64,000 bases of DNA from Nannocystis pusilla (GTDB taxonomy: Bacteria; Myxococcota_A; Polyangia; Nannocystales; Nannocystaceae): positions 221,990 to 285,989 of the forward strand of contig NZ_JAIRAU010000047.1 of assembly GCF_020073745.1 (NCBI RefSeq), given 5' to 3'. Below the pieces are notes generated by a model, which saw only the letters and a list, made by a program, of their open reading frames with translations, did no database searches and was not told the origin of the DNA. Below are positions 3,440-41,632 of the stretch, piece after piece. The stretch's first letter is position 1, and each line of letters opens with the position of its first letter. The translations under genes and the position numbers were made by a program.

Positions 3440-3512
3440 GACATGCTCCTGGAGACATGTTCGATTGGGCATGCCCTCATGGACATGCTCGAGGCGACAT
3501 GTCGCATCGGAC
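3440..3512. repeat. Tandem array (5 units, exact 14-bp period) of the GGACATGTCC-type motif; convergent intergenic
   Basis: CATG cores at offsets 5,19,33,47,61: gacatgctcc/gacatgttcg/gcatgccctc/gacatgctcg/gacatgtcgc. Confidence 0.85.
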
Positions 3513-6039: not shown

Positions 6040-7920
<1,881 letters not shown>

Positions 7921-8012
7921 GGATCTTCGTGTGTTGGGCCCCGGGGGCCCGCAACGCCGCGAACCCGACCCGAGCGCGCAAGGTCCGCGGTGGGACCTAT
8001 AGTCCCCCCACG

Positions 8013-8464: not shown

Positions 8465-8570
8465 GGCCATGTGCCTCATGCGACATGCTCGATTGCGCAT
8501 GTCCTCATCACCATGCCCATTCGCGCATGCCCTCTCGAGCATGTGCGAACGAACATGCCCGCCTCACCGC
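8465..8570. repeat. Tandem array (8 CATG cores, last 6 with exact 14-bp period); convergent intergenic
   Basis: CATG at offsets 4,13,20,34,48,62,76,90 of ggccatgtgcctcatgcgacatgctcgattgcgcatgtcctcatcaccatgcccattcgcgcatgccctctcgagcatgtgcgaacgaacatgccc. Confidence 0.85.
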
Positions 8571-10099
8571 TTCGCGCCGACGTTCTTGCGCTGGAGCTCG
8601 ATCGCCTCGACGTCGCCGACCGCCTCCGCCTCGGCCAGCAGCCAGCGGAACATCGGGCCCGACAGGCCGTACTCCTTGCGGTCGTTCCACAGCCACACCG
8701 CGTAGCCGCACACGTCGCGGTGGACCTGCGGGAACAGCAGGTAGCGCAGCGGCATCCCGCCGAGCAGGACCGCCTCCTCGTAGCGGCGGCGGAACTGGTT
8801 CCACGCCCGCGACTCCTCGGCCGGCGGCAGGCGGCGGTCGGCGGCCGTGCGCGCGCGCAGCTCCTCGGAGCCGGTCTCGACCCCGGTCAGCAGCTCGGCG
8901 CGCAGCTCCTCGGCCGCCAGCGCGGCCGTCGGCAGCACCTCGACCTCGAACGTGGCCAGCGGCAGCCTGGCCGCGCGCGCCAGCTCGGCCAGCTCGCGCG
9001 CGACGGCGCGGCGGATGCCCGCGAGCGCCTCCTCGGCGCGCGTCTGCGTCGTCAGCACGGCGACCCGCTGCCGCATGCGCCGCTCGGCGTGCGGCCACGC
9101 CTCCTCCCACGCGCGGCAGAGCTCCTGCATGCGCGTGGCCGACAGCCGCTGCTCGAGCTCCGTGCCGGCCTGCCCGGGCGTCTTCGGCCGCAGCGCCAGC
9201 CACGTCGCGTGCAGCGCCTGCGCGTGGGCCACCGGGTCGTCGGCGTGGGCCGCGGGGTCGACCAGCGGCACCGTCATGGCCGGCTGCGGCGGCGGCGGCT
9301 TGCGCTGGTGCAGCACCCGCGGGGCCGCGCGCGCCTCGACGAGCAGCGGGCGCATGACCTTTCGGCCAGGTGCCAGCAGCCAGGAGATCCACAGCCCGAA
9401 GTCGGTCGGGTTGGGCTCGCCTGGCAGCGCCTCGCCGCGGATCCGCGCGGCGGCACGGGCGAGGAAGCGGGTGTACGCGGTCGCCTGGCCCGGCAGCACG
9501 CCGCGGCGGATCACCGTGATCCAGTCGCCGCGGCTGGCCGCGTCGGCCACCAGCCAGTCGTTGGCGGCCCGGCGCGCGGCCGCGGGCGCGAAGTCGGGGT
9601 CGAACGCGTCAGCGCCGGCGAGGATGTCGCGCGCCCCGTCGCTATCGCCGCGGCTGGCCGCCAGCAGCCCGGTCGCCACGATCCCCCCGAGCCCGGTCTT
9701 CGCGTTCGCGTGGATCTTGCCTTCGAGCCAGGTCGCGAGCGCCGCGTCGTGCGGGCGGTGCAGCAGCGCCAGCGCGGCCGCCACGAGCTTGCCGCCCTCG
9801 CGGTCGCGCTCCCAGCTCGCGCGGGCCAGCAGCGACAGCCAGTAGCTGGCGCGCACCAGGCCGGCGGCGATCACCGTGCGGCGCAGCACCGGCCACACGA
9901 TCCCGCCGATCAGGTCGAGCAGCGCCACCAGCCAGCCGCCGAGCGCGACCAGCAGGATGAGGTAGGCGAGCGCGCTGGCGACCGCGTACGTCGGCTCGAC
10001 GGCGAGGACGCGCACCGCGAAGGCGGCCGCCACGAGCGCTGCCACCTTCGACAGCGCCCGCCGGGCCAGCACGAGCGCGGCGTCGATCCGCGAACTCAC
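8564..10099 (-). CDS. Membrane protein (2-3 N-terminal TM helices + ~400-aa cytoplasmic domain), function unknown; translationally coupled to upstream J-like gene
   Basis: GTG start (10097-10099) overlaps the TGA stop of the upstream gene (GTGA); GGAGG SD 5 bp upstream; hydrophobic N-terminal helices; non-R-rich, protein-like sequence. Confidence 0.6.
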   Translation of the reverse strand: MSSRIDAALVLARRALSKVAALVAAAFAVRVLAVEPTYAVASALAYLILLVALGGWLVALLDLIGGIVWPVLRRTVIAAGLVRASYWLSLLARASWERDREGGKLVAAALALLHRPHDAALATWLEGKIHANAKTGLGGIVATGLLAASRGDSDGARDILAGADAFDPDFAPAAARRAANDWLVADAASRGDWITVIRRGVLPGQATAYTRFLARAAARIRGEALPGEPNPTDFGLWISWLLAPGRKVMRPLLVEARAAPRVLHQRKPPPPQPAMTVPLVDPAAHADDPVAHAQALHATWLALRPKTPGQAGTELEQRLSATRMQELCRAWEEAWPHAERRMRQRVAVLTTQTRAEEALAGIRRAVARELAELARAARLPLATFEVEVLPTAALAAEELRAELLTGVETGSEELRARTAADRRLPPAEESRAWNQFRRRYEEAVLLGGMPLRYLLFPQVHRDVCGYAVWLWNDRKEYGLSGPMFRWLLAEAEAVGDVEAIELQRKNVGAKR

Positions 10100-10464
10100 G
10101 ACCGCCTCCATCCCAGCGCCGCGAACGCCTCGGCCAGCGGCGCCGGCCCGGGACCCCTCGTCTCGGGGGCCGGCGGCGGCTTCGGCGGCGTCGCGGGCGG
10201 CGGCAGGCTGGCCCAAAATTCATGGCCCAGGCGCTTCTCGTGGTCGCGCAGGGCCGCCATCGCCGCGCGCACCTTGTCCTCGGTGCGGGCGCGCGGCCCG
10301 AGCGGGCTCATATAGGTCGCGGCCGACTTGAGCTTGAGCCCGAGCATGCCGAGCAGCTTCTGGCCCTCGCGCTCGACGTCGACCCGGGTGCAGTCGGGCC
10401 GCAGCCCGAGCACGTGGAACGGGTTGTCGCCCAGCGGCTCGAATTCGTCTGACTTTTGCGACAT
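10096..10464 (-). CDS. Degenerate J-domain-like protein (no HPD motif), probable Hsp70 partner
   Basis: N-terminus NPFHVLGLRPDCTRVDVEREGQKLLGMLGLKLKSA...KVRAAMAALRDHEKR has a J-domain helix II/III pattern but lacks HPD; Pro-rich tail; ATG lies inside a GACATG motif (cgccATGtcgc). Confidence 0.5.
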   Translation of the reverse strand: MSQKSDEFEPLGDNPFHVLGLRPDCTRVDVEREGQKLLGMLGLKLKSAATYMSPLGPRARTEDKVRAAMAALRDHEKRLGHEFWASLPPPATPPKPPPAPETRGPGPAPLAEAFAALGWRRS

Positions 10465-10507
10465 GGCGTTCCCGACAGGTTCTTTACCACATGGTCGAAC
10501 AGACAGC

Positions 10508-12967
<2,460 letters not shown>

Positions 12968-12992
12968 GGCGGGCAAGTGTACCCGGGCGCCC

Positions 12993-13481
12993 TCAGCCAC
13001 GCAGCGCGGAGCGAGCGCGCCGGCGCAGAAGTCGGTCGATCGTCACCCCGGCCGCGGCGCCCAGGCCGACGAGCGCGCACAACAGCGGCAGATCGCCCGC
13101 GCGCTCCGGCGGCCCGGCCGGGGCCGCTGCGCGCCAGGCCACGCGCACCACCCCCGCGCTCCACGGCCCGCACAGCTCGCCGACCAGCGACGCCGCCGCG
13201 GCCTCGTCCCACCCGGGCGGCCCCAGCCCCGTCACCACCACCGCGCCCGGGTCGCCCGCGTCCGGCAAGCGCACCTCGACCGCCAGCGCCTCGGCCCCGA
13301 GCCCGCGCAGGGCCGCCGCCACCGCGTCCGCCAGGGCCAGCTCGTCGCGCGCGCGCTCGCCCGCGCGCGTCGGCACCAGCGCGGGATCGCCGAACAGCTC
13401 GCGCTTGCCGCGGACCCCGCGGGCCTCGGGCGGGCGCGGCCGGTCGCACGCGCCCGCCGCCAGGGCTGTCCCCAGGAACAT
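12993..13481 (-). CDS. Hypothetical (lipo)protein
   Basis: Protein-like, non-R-rich translation (ELFGDPALVPTRAGERARDELALADAVAAALRGLG...). Start uncertain: ATG at 13479-13481 (MFLGTALAAGAC) or 13532; the N-terminal region overlaps a motif array. Confidence 0.4.
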   Translation of the reverse strand: MFLGTALAAGACDRPRPPEARGVRGKRELFGDPALVPTRAGERARDELALADAVAAALRGLGAEALAVEVRLPDAGDPGAVVVTGLGPPGWDEAAAASLVGELCGPWSAGVVRVAWRAAAPAGPPERAGDLPLLCALVGLGAAAGVTIDRLLRRRARSALRG

Positions 13482-13548
13482 GCACCATGCGACATGTCCG
13501 AAGATCCTCGTGGCCCTCAGGTCATGTCTCATACGCCATGTCCCGAGA
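13465..13548. repeat. GGACATGTCC-type motif array (cgacatgtccgaag...ggtcatgtctc...gccatgtcccgag)
   Basis: Five CATG cores between the sigma-factor gene and the downstream lipoprotein gene. Confidence 0.7.
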
Positions 13549-13653
13549 TATTATTCGGCCGCGCCTCGGCCGCGCCCACGCGCCCACGCGCGCCGCTCCC
13601 CGCTCGCGCGCCGGGGGCCCCCGTCGTGCTCGGCGGGCCGCCGCGCCGGGCGT

Positions 13654-14388
13654 TCACGGCCCGACCTCGGGCGGGCTCGCGCCGCCGCCGAGCAGGTCGG
13701 CGAGGCGCCGCAGCAGCCGCTGGTGGCGGCGCGAGATCGTGCTGACGCTGATCGCCAGGTCGGCCGCGACCTCGGTCATCGTCAGCCCGCGCACGTACAC
13801 CGCGTCGATCAGGGCCCGCTCGTCGGCGTCGCAGCGCTCGACCAGCGCGCGCAGCGACAGCCGGACCTCGGGGCCGAACGCGTCGTCGTCGTCGCTGGCG
13901 AACAGGCGCGACAGCACCGCCGCCGCGGTGACCTCGCGGACCAGCTCGGCCGCGTCGCCGAAGCGCTCGCCGATCCGGCGCGGGTCGTCGCCCGGGCGCA
14001 GCCGGATCTCCGCCAGCTCCTGCGTCACCTCGAGCGTGTTGAGCAGCCGGCGCGCGCGCTTGTGGTCGGGGAAGGCGTTGCGGGCGGCGTCGATCATCGC
14101 CCCGCGCACCCGGTAGAACGCGTAGGCCGCGAACGGCACCCCGGCGGCCGGGTCGTAGCGCAGGGCCGCGCGCGCCAGCGCCTCGTAGCCGGCGCTCTCG
14201 CACTCGTCGGGCGCGATCCCGACGACGCGCCGCAGGCTGCGCGCGATGCCCGGCACCCGCGGCGCGAACGCCTCGACGCGCGCGCGCTGCTCCGGCGACA
14301 GACCCGGCCCGCGCGCCGGCGCGGGGTCGGGCGCGAAGGAGGCGTCCTCTTCGACGCCGCGGACGACCTCGTCGTGAGGCTGACTCAT
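13654..14388 (-). CDS. Sigma-70 family RNA polymerase sigma factor (group 3 / FliA-like)
   Basis: Region 2 (GYEALARAALRYDPAAGVPFAAYAFYRVRGAMID) and region 4 HTH (LTMTEVAADLAISVSTISRRHQRLLRRL); ATG 5 bp downstream of an exact GGACATGTCC. Confidence 0.8.
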   Translation of the reverse strand: MSQPHDEVVRGVEEDASFAPDPAPARGPGLSPEQRARVEAFAPRVPGIARSLRRVVGIAPDECESAGYEALARAALRYDPAAGVPFAAYAFYRVRGAMIDAARNAFPDHKRARRLLNTLEVTQELAEIRLRPGDDPRRIGERFGDAAELVREVTAAAVLSRLFASDDDDAFGPEVRLSLRALVERCDADERALIDAVYVRGLTMTEVAADLAISVSTISRRHQRLLRRLADLLGGGASPPEVGP

Positions 14389-14416
14389 AGGACATGTCCT
14401 CGCAGACAGCAGCGGC

Positions 14417-14737
14417 TCAGGCGCCCGCGGCCTCCTGGCTGTCGAGGATGTGCTTGCGCAGCGCGCTCTTCTGCTCGTCGGTGATGTGGACGAAGCGGAT
14501 CGCCATGTCGCTGTCGCCGCCGCGGACGACCGTCCCGGACAGCGGCAGGCTGGCCGACAGGGCCGGGAAGCTGAGCACGAGCGCGACCTGCTGCCCCGCC
14601 TCCTCCCACGCCGGGCCGCCGAACTTGCAGCCGCCGAGGCTGAGGTCGTCGAGGGCGCGGGCCAGGACCACCTCGGAGCCGATGATGTCGGCGTGGGCGT
14701 GGATCCGCAGGCGAGGATGGAAGCGGGCGTCCGTCAC
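14417..14737 (-). CDS. PilZ domain protein (c-di-GMP receptor family)
   Basis: PilZ signature RFHPRLRI (RxxxR) ... DLSLGGC (DxSxGG); ~107 aa from the GTG start; directly upstream of the sigma factor gene. Confidence 0.7.
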   Translation of the reverse strand: MTDARFHPRLRIHAHADIIGSEVVLARALDDLSLGGCKFGGPAWEEAGQQVALVLSFPALSASLPLSGTVVRGGDSDMAIRFVHITDEQKSALRKHILDSQEAAGA

Positions 14738-14782: not shown

Positions 14783-14820
14783 AAGGGACGCGCTGGCACA
14801 CCGGCCGTGCCCCCCGTGCC
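14783..14820. promoter_or_regulatory. Operator-like double inverted repeat in the PilZ / lipoprotein divergent region
   Basis: TGGCAC-accggcc-GTGCC followed by the perfect palindrome GTGCCAA-A-TTGGCAC (14806-14820). Confidence 0.4.
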
Positions 14821-14943
14821 AAATTGGCACGCAGAGCTCCCTGGCCGCGCTCCCAAGCCGTGCGCTAAGTCCTTGTTTCAAGAAGCGACTTTGAAGGCTG
14901 GCGCGCCTGGCCGCGTGATTGCACAATCCGCCTCGCTCGACCC

Positions 14944-15453
14944 ATGCCCGGACGCTCTCTCGCCCTCGCACTCGCCACGGTGCTCGCCGCGCCCGCCGCC
15001 CTCGGCTGCAAGAACACCACGATCATCCCGGGGACCGAGATCCCCGACACGCCCGACAACCGCGAGATCCTGCAGGTCGTCGAGCGCTTCCGGACCAGCT
15101 TCGTGCGCCAGGATCCGGCCGGCATCCTCGCCACCGCTCACCCGACCTACTACGACGAGTCGGGCACCGACGACCCCAGCGACGACATCGTCTACGAGGA
15201 GCTCGGCCCGATCCTGCGCCGCCGGATCGCCCAGCTCGAGTCGGTCCGCTTCACCATCGAGTACCTCGACATCTACATGCGCCGCGACCGCGCCACCGTG
15301 AACGTGTGGATCGACGCGACCTTCCGCCTCAAGCCGATCCTCGGCGACGACGGCCTGCCCCGCTTCCCGCCGCGCGTGGTGCCCAAGCAGGACTACGCCA
15401 AGTTCGAGCTGATCCGCGAGGGCGACTCCTGGCTGATCACCAAGGGCATCTGA
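14944..15453 (+). CDS. Lipoprotein with SnoaL/NTF2-like fold
   Basis: Signal peptide with lipobox (AALGCK); compact ~150-aa mature domain; good GC3 signal. Confidence 0.65.
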   Translation: MPGRSLALALATVLAAPAALGCKNTTIIPGTEIPDTPDNREILQVVERFRTSFVRQDPAGILATAHPTYYDESGTDDPSDDIVYEELGPILRRRIAQLESVRFTIEYLDIYMRRDRATVNVWIDATFRLKPILGDDGLPRFPPRVVPKQDYAKFELIREGDSWLITKGI

Positions 15454-15464
15454 GCCGCACCTGA

Positions 15465-15550
15465 GCGAACGGGCAGGTCCTCCGGAACCTGTCCGTTCGT
15501 GCATGTCCGTTCGGGCCTGTCGCCGAGGACATGTCGCTGCGGACAGCGTC
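15465..15550. repeat. GGACATGTCC/GGACCTGTCC motif array; convergent intergenic
   Basis: ggaacctgtccgttcgtgcatgtccgttcgggcctgtcgccgaggacatgtcgctgcggacag. Confidence 0.75.
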
Positions 15551-16118
15551 AGCCGCTGCAGGCCCCGCCCGAGCAGGTCTTCTTGCACTTCGCGCCGTCG
15601 CAGCTGCGCGAGCAGGTCCCGCCCGAGCAGGTCAGGTCGCAGTCGGAGCCGGCCTTGCACGTCTGGCTGCAGGTCCCGCCGCCGCAGGTGAACCTGCAGG
15701 TCGCGCCGGCCTCGCAGGTCTGCGTGCACGAGCCGCCGGCGCAGGTGTGCTCGCAGGCGCCGCCGCTGCACGTCTGCACGCAGGCGCCGTCGGGGCAGTC
15801 CTTGCCGCTCGCCGGCTTGGCCTCGTCGCCGCCCTCGGCGGGCGCGCCGAGATGCACGACCTCGCCCGGCAGCTTGATCGTGCCGTCGGCCCCGACCTCG
15901 ACCTCGCCGGCCTTGACGCCCTTCGCGGTGACCGTGACGTCGCCGACCTCGGTGCTGCCGATCTCGACATTGACCTCGCCCGGCTCGACCGGCACCGCCG
16001 TCGCCGGCGCGCTCACGGCCGGCGCGGCGGCCTTCTGCTCCGCCTCCGCGGCGGGCTTCGAGCCGCAGGCGATGAACGACGCCGCCGCGATCGCGGCGAG
16101 GAACGAGAACGTGCGCAT
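15549..16118 (-). CDS. Cys-rich repeat lipoprotein (repeated TC-GG-C units)
   Basis: MRTFSFLAAIAAASFIACGS signal/lipobox; C-terminal CxxGxCxxTC repeats x ~7. Confidence 0.6.
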   Translation of the reverse strand: MRTFSFLAAIAAASFIACGSKPAAEAEQKAAAPAVSAPATAVPVEPGEVNVEIGSTEVGDVTVTAKGVKAGEVEVGADGTIKLPGEVVHLGAPAEGGDEAKPASGKDCPDGACVQTCSGGACEHTCAGGSCTQTCEAGATCRFTCGGGTCSQTCKAGSDCDLTCSGGTCSRSCDGAKCKKTCSGGACSG

Positions 16119-16217
16119 CACGAGCACTCCTTGGTTGCGGCACGACGCTAGCACGCCGGCCGATCGCCCACGGGTCTCGTGCTCCCTGTCCGTGGAGACA
16201 GGTTCGAGATCACGCGC

Positions 16218-32829: not shown

Positions 32830-32905
32830 CCGACATGCGCCGAAGGGCATGCCCCTTCGAGCATGCACATCGGGACATGCCCTCGCGGACATGTCCGAAG
32901 CGACA
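32830..32905. repeat. GGACATGTCC-type motif array; convergent intergenic
   Basis: cgacatgcgccgaagggcatgccccttcgagcatgcacatcgggacatgccctcgcggacatgtccgaag. Confidence 0.8.
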
Positions 32906-41414: not shown

Positions 41415-41559
41415 CGGCTGCCCTCTGCCATCGGTCCACAGTAGACCGCCGCGCGCCCTCCCGGGGGATCGATCCGCCGCGCTGAACCGCGCTCCCCGAG
41501 CGCCGCCGCGCGGCAGCGCGCACGGCCGAGGTCGCGACCGTCGTATCTGTTCCACCATG

Positions 41560-41600
41560 CCTGTTCGGACATGCCCCAACCGACATGTCCATTCAACCAT
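41560..41600. repeat. Motif array (ttcggacatgccccaaccgacatgtccattc)
   Basis: Between the aminotransferase start and the lipoprotein stop. Confidence 0.7.
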
Positions 41601-41632
41601 GGCCGCGAACAGCGTCTCGCACCTCGCCGGCC

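Follow-up and report, generated by a model that had tools for sequence, protein, structure and literature searches.

A 64,000-nucleotide (nt) stretch of the Nannocystis pusilla genome (contig NZ_JAIRAU010000047.1; hereafter the window) carries on its minus strand six consecutive genes predicted to encode a PilZ protein, a sigma-70-family factor, an envelope protein, an Hsp70, a J-domain-like (J-like) protein, and a protein of 511 amino acids (aa) that we call X511. This cluster is composed of two independently conserved modules that are adjacent only in Nannocystis and its close relatives. Module B comprises the genes for Hsp70, J-like, and X511. Module A comprises the genes for PilZ, the sigma factor, and the envelope protein, together with a lipoprotein gene divergent from the PilZ gene. 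We favor, with some reserve, the reading that in the class Polyangia module B encodes a dedicated Hsp70 system tethered to the membrane and that module A is a separate envelope-related regulatory unit. A first-pass annotation made from the DNA letters had placed the six genes as follows, and these coordinates, as well as a GTGA overlap and an upstream palindrome that it reported, held up on re-examination of the minus strand.

14417-14737, minus strand: PilZ protein, 106 aa
13654-14388, minus strand: sigma-70-family factor, 244 aa
12993-13532, minus strand: third gene, an envelope protein/lipoprotein, 179 aa
10508-12967, minus strand: Hsp70, 819 aa
10096-10464, minus strand: J-like protein without the His-Pro-Asp (HPD) motif, 122 aa
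8564-10099, minus strand: X511, an all-alpha, membrane-anchored solenoid resembling tetratricopeptide repeat (TPR) proteins

Successive genes are spaced by 28, 121, 25, and 43 nt, followed by a 4-nt overlap in which the GTG start codon of X511 overlaps the TGA stop codon of the J-like gene. No terminator-like sites were found within the six-gene cluster. Neither sigma-70 promoters nor intrinsic terminators were predicted inside it, a result that is uninformative at the approximately 75% GC content of the window, which the cluster shares with its surroundings. A 511-aa N. pusilla protein in NCBI is identical to X511, and the genome locus nearest to the window cluster is that of N. radixulma.

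Two modules with separate distributions

To examine the distribution of module B, one genome per species was scanned with an X511 profile, yielding 79 loci that were then searched by tblastn with the six window proteins. Module A was surveyed with a third-gene profile in a metagenome scan followed by the same six-protein tblastn, and linkage of the two modules was judged from adjacency at the loci. In the scan, members of the X511 family came from Polyangia only and not from Myxococcia; all class-labeled loci belong to Polyangia, and two metagenome-assembled genomes (MAGs) are labeled Proteobacteria or Alphaproteobacteria. Wherever upstream sequence was available a J-like gene lies directly upstream of X511, with a single locus (L087) in which it was undetected, and in about 65 loci an Hsp70 of approximately 820 aa is encoded directly upstream of the J-like/X511 pair. 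Loci with this order span Nannocystis, Enhygromyxa, Sorangium, Chondromyces, Minicystis, Byssovorax, Kofleriaceae, and Haliangiales. In gene-called loci (L004, L005, L007, and L009) the start and stop codons of the trio abut or overlap, suggesting translational coupling. This synteny across Polyangia supports the earlier proposal that the Hsp70, a degenerate J protein, and a membrane partner are a co-conserved unit.

Each module also occurs without the other. The trio stands with no PilZ or sigma gene beside it in Sorangium, Chondromyces, Minicystis, Enhygromyxa, and Haliangiales; the gene upstream encodes a CAP-domain protein in Sorangium and a bestrophin in Chondromyces. Conversely, module A stands on many metagenome contigs with no Hsp70 beside it. 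Nine or more of these loci have ample sequence downstream (L105, L107, L108, L112-114, L118, L126, and L130), and in the four that were inspected (L107, L108, L118, and L130) the genes downstream of module A are on the opposite strand. The PilZ, sigma factor, and lipoprotein genes lie upstream of the trio only in Nannocystis and close relatives. In that lineage the adjacency and same-strand order hold down to approximately 39-41% identity in X511 and approximately 45% in the sigma factor, and the gap from the third-gene stop codon to the Hsp70 start codon is 11-65 nt where measured. The first-pass annotation had treated the six genes as a single module. The genes are real and adjacent in Nannocystis, but they form two separately conserved units. 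The window thus holds a real, well-delimited specialized Hsp70 system, which in this one lineage has a PilZ/sigma-28-like module of separate standing next to it.

There is also a paralogous J-like/X511 subfamily with no adjacent Hsp70, found in MAGs that hold the full trio as well (L053, L054, L056, L059, L066-L068, L070, L071, L073, L078, and L082, with the match near position 8001 in each). The pair at L067 retains the J-like hairpin motif described below. It is located between an open reading frame (ORF) with an acyltransferase domain and an AnmK gene; an opposite-strand FabH-like ORF and no Hsp70 lie upstream.

Hsp70 has an insert, a divergent substrate-binding domain, and a conserved C-terminal peptide

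The Hsp70 matches the Pfam HSP70 model (E 4.5e-80) through its nucleotide-binding domain (NBD) only. Residues 8-366 match NBD structures of DnaK (E 9e-63), and the nucleotide-binding motifs GIDLGTTNS, FKRLMG, QEP, DLGGGTFD, and LVGGPS are readable. Its scores are below the equivalog cutoffs for both DnaK (PRK00290, 271.9 bits versus 648) and HscA (TIGR01991, 240.8 versus 708.55), and its 34% identity to Escherichia coli HscC covers the NBD only. Its earlier assignment as a non-housekeeping Hsp70 stands.

Searches with Pfam and PDB hidden Markov models returned nothing beyond the NBD. Using hhalign, a profile of the C-terminal region of the family was compared with DnaK, HscA, and HscC, and residues 478-619 aligned with DnaK 396-523, a span that reaches into the lid, at a probability of 81% (E 1.2e-5); the alignment was also recovered in a single-sequence version. 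This domain, which resembles the beta subdomain of the Hsp70 substrate-binding domain (SBD-beta), is very divergent, as its absence from the Pfam and PDB results shows. The protein thus comprises an NBD (residues 1 to ~365), an insert of approximately 110 aa (~366-477), the SBD-beta-like domain (478 to ~600), and a helical region of approximately 220 aa extending to residue 819, which is longer than that of DnaK. This replaces the earlier description of an NBD followed by a C-terminal extension of approximately 280 aa. The protein ends in GHESGVR, and the motif [H/Y/F][D/E]SGVR is kept at the C-terminus of nearly all of the 81 relatives.

The J-like protein has a J-domain fold in which a hairpin replaces HPD

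The J-like protein has the four-helix J-domain fold. Alignment with canonical J domains by hhalign gave an E value of 8e-5, with x-[T/S]-P placed at the HPD position. An AlphaFold model (predicted local distance difference test score, pLDDT, 80) showed the helices of a J domain, and at residues 50-59 a beta-hairpin takes the place of the HPD loop. None of 91 relatives contains HPD. All 91 contain Y-x-[T/S]-P-x-G-x-x-x-R, in which Y51, P54, G56, and R60 are invariant, and the replacement hairpin itself reads Y-x-[T/S]-P-x-G-P-x-x-R. Approximately 24 columns of the J-like alignment, including those of this hairpin, are invariant. The Pfam DnaJ model (PF00226) did not match the window protein and matched 7 of 30 relatives weakly, below threshold (best E 0.068), and a profile search of the PDB with J-like gave nothing significant by sequence. 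The absence of HPD, already noted in the window protein, thus holds throughout the 91 relatives. It was also correctly noted that J-like and X511 fall outside recognizable families: no Pfam, NCBIfam, or PADLOC model matched either of them.

X511 is a membrane-anchored solenoid with natural fusions to J-like in some relatives

X511 is a membrane-anchored, all-alpha, TPR-like solenoid, the TPR assignment being generic. It has no Pfam or close PDB relative, and a PDB profile search found nothing significant by sequence. Its hydropathy profile shows a hydrophobic N-terminus only, followed by Arg-rich sequence, and its alignment contains 45 invariant columns. The predicted topology has one or two N-terminal helices as an anchor in the inner membrane and a solenoid of approximately 440 aa in the cytoplasm.

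At least two independent natural fusions join J-like to X511 in a single polypeptide. P0045 (677 aa) is encoded directly after an Hsp70 gene (L003, positions 10001-12034), and P0420 is 580 aa long. In both, a hydrophobic membrane segment lies between the J-like domain and the solenoid; in P0045 it comprises residues 149-196 and is of sufficient length for a transmembrane hairpin, so both flanking domains are expected to be cytoplasmic.

A proposed role for the trio

Based on these features, we propose that X511 and J-like form a platform on the membrane at which the Hsp70 would dock. J-like would be an obligate partner of X511 with the role of docking this atypical Hsp70, its hairpin taking the place of the canonical HPD contact. 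Because HPD is replaced by the conserved Y-x-[T/S]-P-x-G hairpin, coupling of J-like to the Hsp70 is probably non-canonical, and J-like may serve as a tether or regulator and not as a classical trigger of ATPase activity. The trio would deliver ATP-driven substrate binding and remodeling to one or more specific clients at the cytoplasmic face of the membrane. The contacts between DnaK and DnaJ, considered together with our alignments, suggest that the family-invariant NBD sequence LLETRDGLLRV and two acidic residues of J-like helix II, the invariant E31 and the near-invariant E33, may be co-adapted. By analogy, the conserved [H/Y/F][D/E]SGVR peptide that ends the Hsp70 is a candidate docking peptide for a groove in the TPR-like X511. 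In Nannocystis, where module B begins 25 nt downstream of module A, the trio would also be under control linked to cyclic di-GMP (c-di-GMP) and the sigma factor; co-transcription of the two modules is probable there, since the gap is this short and contains no terminator.

Several points weigh against this proposal. A J-like protein with no HPD might have no effect whatever on ATPase activity, and an insert of this size between the NBD and SBD could disrupt classical Hsp70 allostery, so that the usual chaperoning is not assured. The topology of X511 is predicted from hydropathy and the positive-inside rule, and it is gene spacing that makes co-transcription of the modules probable.

Module A encodes a predicted c-di-GMP receptor beside a sigma-28-like factor

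The PilZ protein matches the Pfam PilZ model above its cutoff (E 1.2e-9, 38.8 bits versus 22.5). Both c-di-GMP-binding motifs are intact in the window protein, as RFHPR (RxxxR) and DLSLGG (DxSxxG), and RxxxR and [DN]xSxxG are present in 48 of 48 orthologs. Gene calls in L001, L005, and L006 give a length of 106-107 aa. The earlier PilZ assignment is confirmed by these matches, and this single-domain protein is a predicted c-di-GMP receptor.

The assignment of the next gene to the sigma-70 family is likewise correct, Sigma70 regions 2 and 4 both being above their Pfam cutoffs. The protein aligns from end to end with the FliA model PRK06986 (50.3 bits versus a cutoff of 201), and it scored 59.3 bits with TIGR02479 (FliA_WhiG), which has a cutoff of 189.6. 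Among solved structures its best matches are FliA chains (E 1e-9), followed by chains from 6pfj and 6pfv (E 1e-5), which we take to be entries for the RsiG-WhiG complex; their record label gives 'RNA polymerase sigma factor' only. By sequence, this is a divergent sigma-28 (FliA/WhiG)-like factor that fails the subfamily cutoff and hence is not a member.

The third gene overlaps or abuts the sigma gene in many loci. Alignment of 17 orthologs, together with hydropathy, revealed a conserved lipobox-type Cys near the N-terminus, the conserved sequence LFGDPxLVPTRxGERARxELALA, and then a C-terminal transmembrane segment with an Arg-rich tail. The body of the protein is presumably periplasmic. It has no relative in Pfam, NCBIfam, or the PDB. 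We considered whether it could be a classical transmembrane anti-sigma factor and rejected this on the basis of its N-terminal signal/lipobox, its lack of a cytoplasmic N-terminal domain, and the absence of a match to anti-sigma Pfam models. Its layout of a lipobox and a C-terminal transmembrane segment also recalls ring-building lipoproteins of the EscJ/PrgK type, an identity that found no Pfam or PDB support.

Upstream of the PilZ gene lie a divergent gene and two sequence elements.

14944-15453, plus strand: divergent lipoprotein gene, ~170 aa, gene 0 of module A, outside the interval of the first-pass annotation
14816-14830: palindrome GTGCCAATTTGGCAC with 7-bp arms and a 1-nt spacer, in the intergenic region between the PilZ and divergent lipoprotein genes
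14908-14923, plus strand: sigma-54-type promoter-like element TGGCCGCGTGATTGCA, a match to GG-N10-GC

The divergent lipoprotein gene adjoins the PilZ gene in every one of the 44 loci in which both occur, whether the Hsp70 module is present or not, and its product is 58-82% identical to that of the gene at the same position in L001, L005, L107, and L118. There was no Pfam match to this protein and nothing significant in a PDB profile search; one ortholog gave weak matches to the NTF2-like families DUF4440, SnoaL, and CaMKII_AD. Taken as a whole, module A is most likely an independent envelope-related regulatory unit in which c-di-GMP is sensed through PilZ.

Downstream of two of the module A loci that lack the trio is a convergent gene encoding a papain-family (Peptidase_C1) protein with TPR repeats (L107, 8133-10331, and L118, 8583-10865, both on the minus strand).

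The palindrome belongs to the divergent promoter region of module A

Taken alone, the palindrome GTGCCAATTTGGCAC is unremarkable: it has a single match in the 64 kb, and two or more matches occurred in 15 of 100 shuffled sequences. We count it as real because it is conserved in related loci. It is kept in six Nannocystis genomes, in one of them with a spacer 1 nt shorter, and among 45 orthologous intergenic regions 27 carry a variant of the form TGCCA-N2-5-TG(G/T)CA, some of these regions belonging to loci with no Hsp70 module. The element TGGCCGCGTGATTGCA is 20 nt upstream of the ATG of the divergent lipoprotein gene and approximately 90 nt downstream of the palindrome. The pattern TGGC-N7-TTGCA has one match in the window, and at least one match occurred in 23 of 100 shuffles. 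The six Nannocystis genomes that are sequenced have the element at this same distance, as does the metagenome contig L090, and a looser form, TGG[CT]-N7-[TC]TGC, is found in 19 of the 45 intergenic regions, including those of other lineages.

Sigma-54 promoters have the consensus GG-N10-GC, with a site for an enhancer-binding protein upstream. By analogy, the geometry of the palindrome and TGGCCGCGTGATTGCA suggests that they may be such a site and such a promoter. The conservation pattern identifies the palindrome as a real regulatory footprint of the divergent promoter region of module A, and it may serve the divergent lipoprotein gene and not the string of genes from PilZ to Hsp70. The palindrome had been put forward as a sign of dedicated regulation of the cluster. 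That it is a conserved element is upheld; since it lies in a shared divergent promoter region and is retained in loci with no Hsp70 module, it is not a marker of Hsp70-specific regulation.

Alternative explanations

The six genes could instead form one c-di-GMP/sigma/chaperone circuit in which the membrane-tethered Hsp70 system holds or releases the sigma-28-like factor post-translationally, in the manner of DnaK/DnaJ with sigma-32, and PilZ switches this by c-di-GMP, in the manner of RsiG with sigma-WhiG. The order and adjacency of the two modules persist with short gaps in Nannocystis and its relatives, and the place of a sigma regulator is vacant, the third gene being no classical anti-sigma factor. 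The nearest solved relatives of the sigma factor are FliA proteins, with weaker matches that we assume, although the records do not label them so, to be RsiG-WhiG entries. There is precedent for a c-di-GMP-armed anti-sigma factor that acts on a sigma factor of the sigma-28 family (PMC7005675), and control of sigma-32 by DnaK/DnaJ is established (PMC8215388). Nevertheless, both modules are also conserved on their own and so do not depend on one another, and the trio is far more widespread than its adjacency to module A. No sequence feature connects the sigma factor with Hsp70 or with X511, and a limited literature search brought up no PilZ-type anti-sigma factor. We consider a single circuit of this kind unlikely. 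A related and more specific idea is that the HPD-less J-fold adaptor and the membrane TPR-like receptor capture the Hsp70 by its tail and that in Nannocystis the resulting membrane-localized machine is controlled by c-di-GMP through a PilZ/sigma-28-like switch, with the chaperone gating the sigma factor or envelope assembly. We regard this combination as distinctly unlikely; if true, it would be a new mode of bacterial Hsp70 regulation and a counterpart of the eukaryotic EEVD-TPR system.

Another explanation is that the trio is a degenerate, redundant proteostasis paralog with a minor role in stress, a decayed HPD-less co-chaperone, and a gene order that is merely inherited. Myxobacteria contain up to 15 Hsp70-family genes, and in Myxococcus xanthus deletion of each of four non-canonical Hsp70s only reduced sporulation and oxidative resistance (PMC8265645); DnaK derivatives have been termed unexplored 'dark matter' (PMC13580251). 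Decay is contradicted by purifying conservation, seen in the invariant columns of J-like and X511 and in the Hsp70 tail. The start/stop overlaps are preserved, and J-like and X511 have been fused at least twice. These observations leave only a slim chance that the trio is a decayed paralog. An Hsp70-based conflict or anti-phage defense system on a mobile island is highly improbable in our judgment. Multi-gene systems combining a nucleoside triphosphatase with membrane or repeat proteins are common in defense islands, and the partners of the Hsp70 have no known family. Against this, PADLOC gave no match better than E 0.001 for the six proteins (best Hsp70 match, E 0.064), and no integrase, toxin, or nuclease domain was found near the gene-called loci. 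The module is distributed class-wide, and in the window its GC content equals that of its surroundings. In the scan each sequenced Nannocystis genome has a single copy, and the region upstream of PilZ can be aligned across these genomes.

Comparison with known systems

A dedicated membrane-tethered Hsp70 trio, the reading that we prefer, is no surprise in principle, as myxobacteria have many Hsp70 paralogs. No trio of this kind is described in the Hsp70 literature that we found by text search, and a 2026 review describes bacterial DnaK derivatives as unexplored (PMC13580251). The closest functional analogue is HscC with DjlB and DjlC, in which a non-DnaK Hsp70 is encoded beside its own membrane-anchored J partners, which suggests that it works at the cytoplasmic side of the membrane (PMC8215388). 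The two systems are alike in having several J partners per Hsp70, DjlB and DjlC there and the paralogous J-like/X511 pairs here, and the hscC locus of E. coli contains TPR-class (Sel1) genes. They differ in that DjlB and DjlC are J-domain proteins with C-terminal tail anchors, DjlC stimulating the HscC ATPase, whereas the partners described here have no HPD and an N-terminal anchor on a separate or fused solenoid of approximately 440-450 aa. HscC is also only 556 aa long, compared with 819 aa for the window Hsp70 with its insert and long tail. Membership in the HscC-DjlB/DjlC system was rejected, the hhalign probabilities for X511 and J-like against DjlC, YbeU (DUF1266), and YbeT (Sel1) being 0.9%, 0.1%, 0.2%, and 0.05%. 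Module B is best read as analogous to HscC-DjlB/C and not homologous with it. In E. coli K-12 (L089, positions 676000-686000) the neighborhood of hscC consists of a duplicated set of a Sel1-repeat gene, a DUF1266 gene, and djlB or djlC, with each DUF1266 gene overlapping its djl gene by 4 nt, an arrangement loosely parallel to that of the trio.

For a J-domain fold with no HPD there is a mechanistic precedent in Tim16/Pam16, a protein with the J fold in which the catalytic HPD is missing and whose role is to tether or regulate, not to trigger an ATPase. The fold is shared with Tim16/Pam16 and with J-fold subunits of large complexes. Tim16-type proteins, in contrast to J-like, are eukaryotic or organellar; J-like has a longer invariant beta-hairpin for the HPD loop and is paired with its own Hsp70 paralog. 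Among eukaryotic Hsp70s, the C-terminal EEVD tail binds the TPR co-chaperones Hop, CHIP, and Tom70. The conserved peptide at the extreme C-terminus of the Hsp70 and the TPR-like partner encoded alongside it resemble this arrangement by analogy only, the motif here being [H/Y/F][D/E]SGVR and the TPR assignment of the partner generic.

The first-pass annotation had likened the cluster to myxobacterial modules of the StkA type. StkA is a DnaK homologue of 540 aa whose gene is followed by those for the SCP2-like StkB (141 codons) and the 89-aa StkC, and it functions in exopolysaccharide regulation (PMC4319316). Both systems encode a non-heat-shock myxobacterial DnaK homologue; in StkABC it is encoded together with two downstream genes. 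The resemblance ends there: the stk locus has neither a J-like protein nor a large membrane solenoid protein, its DnaK homologue lacks the insert and long tail, and no gene in our cluster gave an SCP2 match. An StkA-type module was rejected on this difference in locus architecture (PMC4319316).

For module A, the comparison is with RsiG and WhiG. RsiG is a helical protein and not a PilZ-domain protein. In both systems a bacterium that has no flagella but a complex development encodes a sigma-28-family-like factor beside a predicted c-di-GMP receptor (PMC7005675). They also differ in that the sigma factor here is far below the cutoff of the FliA/WhiG model.

Other features of the window

Two further features near the cluster, and one array adjoining it, were recorded.

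8468-8557: CATG-rich array, 8 CATG per 90 nt with a period of roughly 14 nt
6040-7920, minus strand: 626-aa ORF resembling a Ser/Thr protein kinase, downstream of the cluster on the same strand
15549-16154, minus strand: 201-aa predicted protein with a hydrophobic N-terminus and a run of Cys-rich repeats resembling C-x-G-G-x-C-x-x-x-C, with no Pfam match

The CATG array is located directly 3' of the last gene and is a copy of an intergenic element dispersed throughout the window; it is not part of the module. Such arrays, with the same period, occur at approximately 10 sites in the window, often around palindromes resembling GGACATGTCC. Examples in addition to the array at 8468-8557 are those at 13479-13540, 3442-3501, 32834-32893, and 41556-41601, and the arrays that were compared with ORFs are intergenic. 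GGACATG occurs 55 times in the window against 5.65 expected. An exact 16-mer, GGACATGNNNTATGAG, covers the start codons of the third gene (13528-13543, minus strand) and the sigma gene (14384-14399, minus strand). Common control of the two genes through this 16-mer was considered and rejected, since only the closest relative (L015) retains the sequence and the core GGACATG is over-represented approximately 10-fold across the window. A search for riboswitches or leader RNAs in the cluster gave a single Rfam match, L19_leader within the X511 coding region, which at 27.2 bits against a gathering threshold of 36 we take to be chance. A kinase gene is also found near the fusion locus L003.

Implications

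Bacterial DnaK derivatives are numerous, above all in myxobacteria, and reviews describe them as unexplored (PMC13580251; PMC8265645). One such protein is now defined as belonging to a three-part unit across a whole class. The fusions predict which of its proteins touch, and the hairpin, the Hsp70 tail, and the membrane partner are concrete handles for experiment. RsiG and WhiG provide one route from c-di-GMP to a sigma-28-family factor, and the unit of PilZ, sigma-28-like factor, and lipoprotein is a candidate second one. The trio opens the question of how an Hsp70 is driven or tethered without HPD, and of what role such systems have at the membrane.

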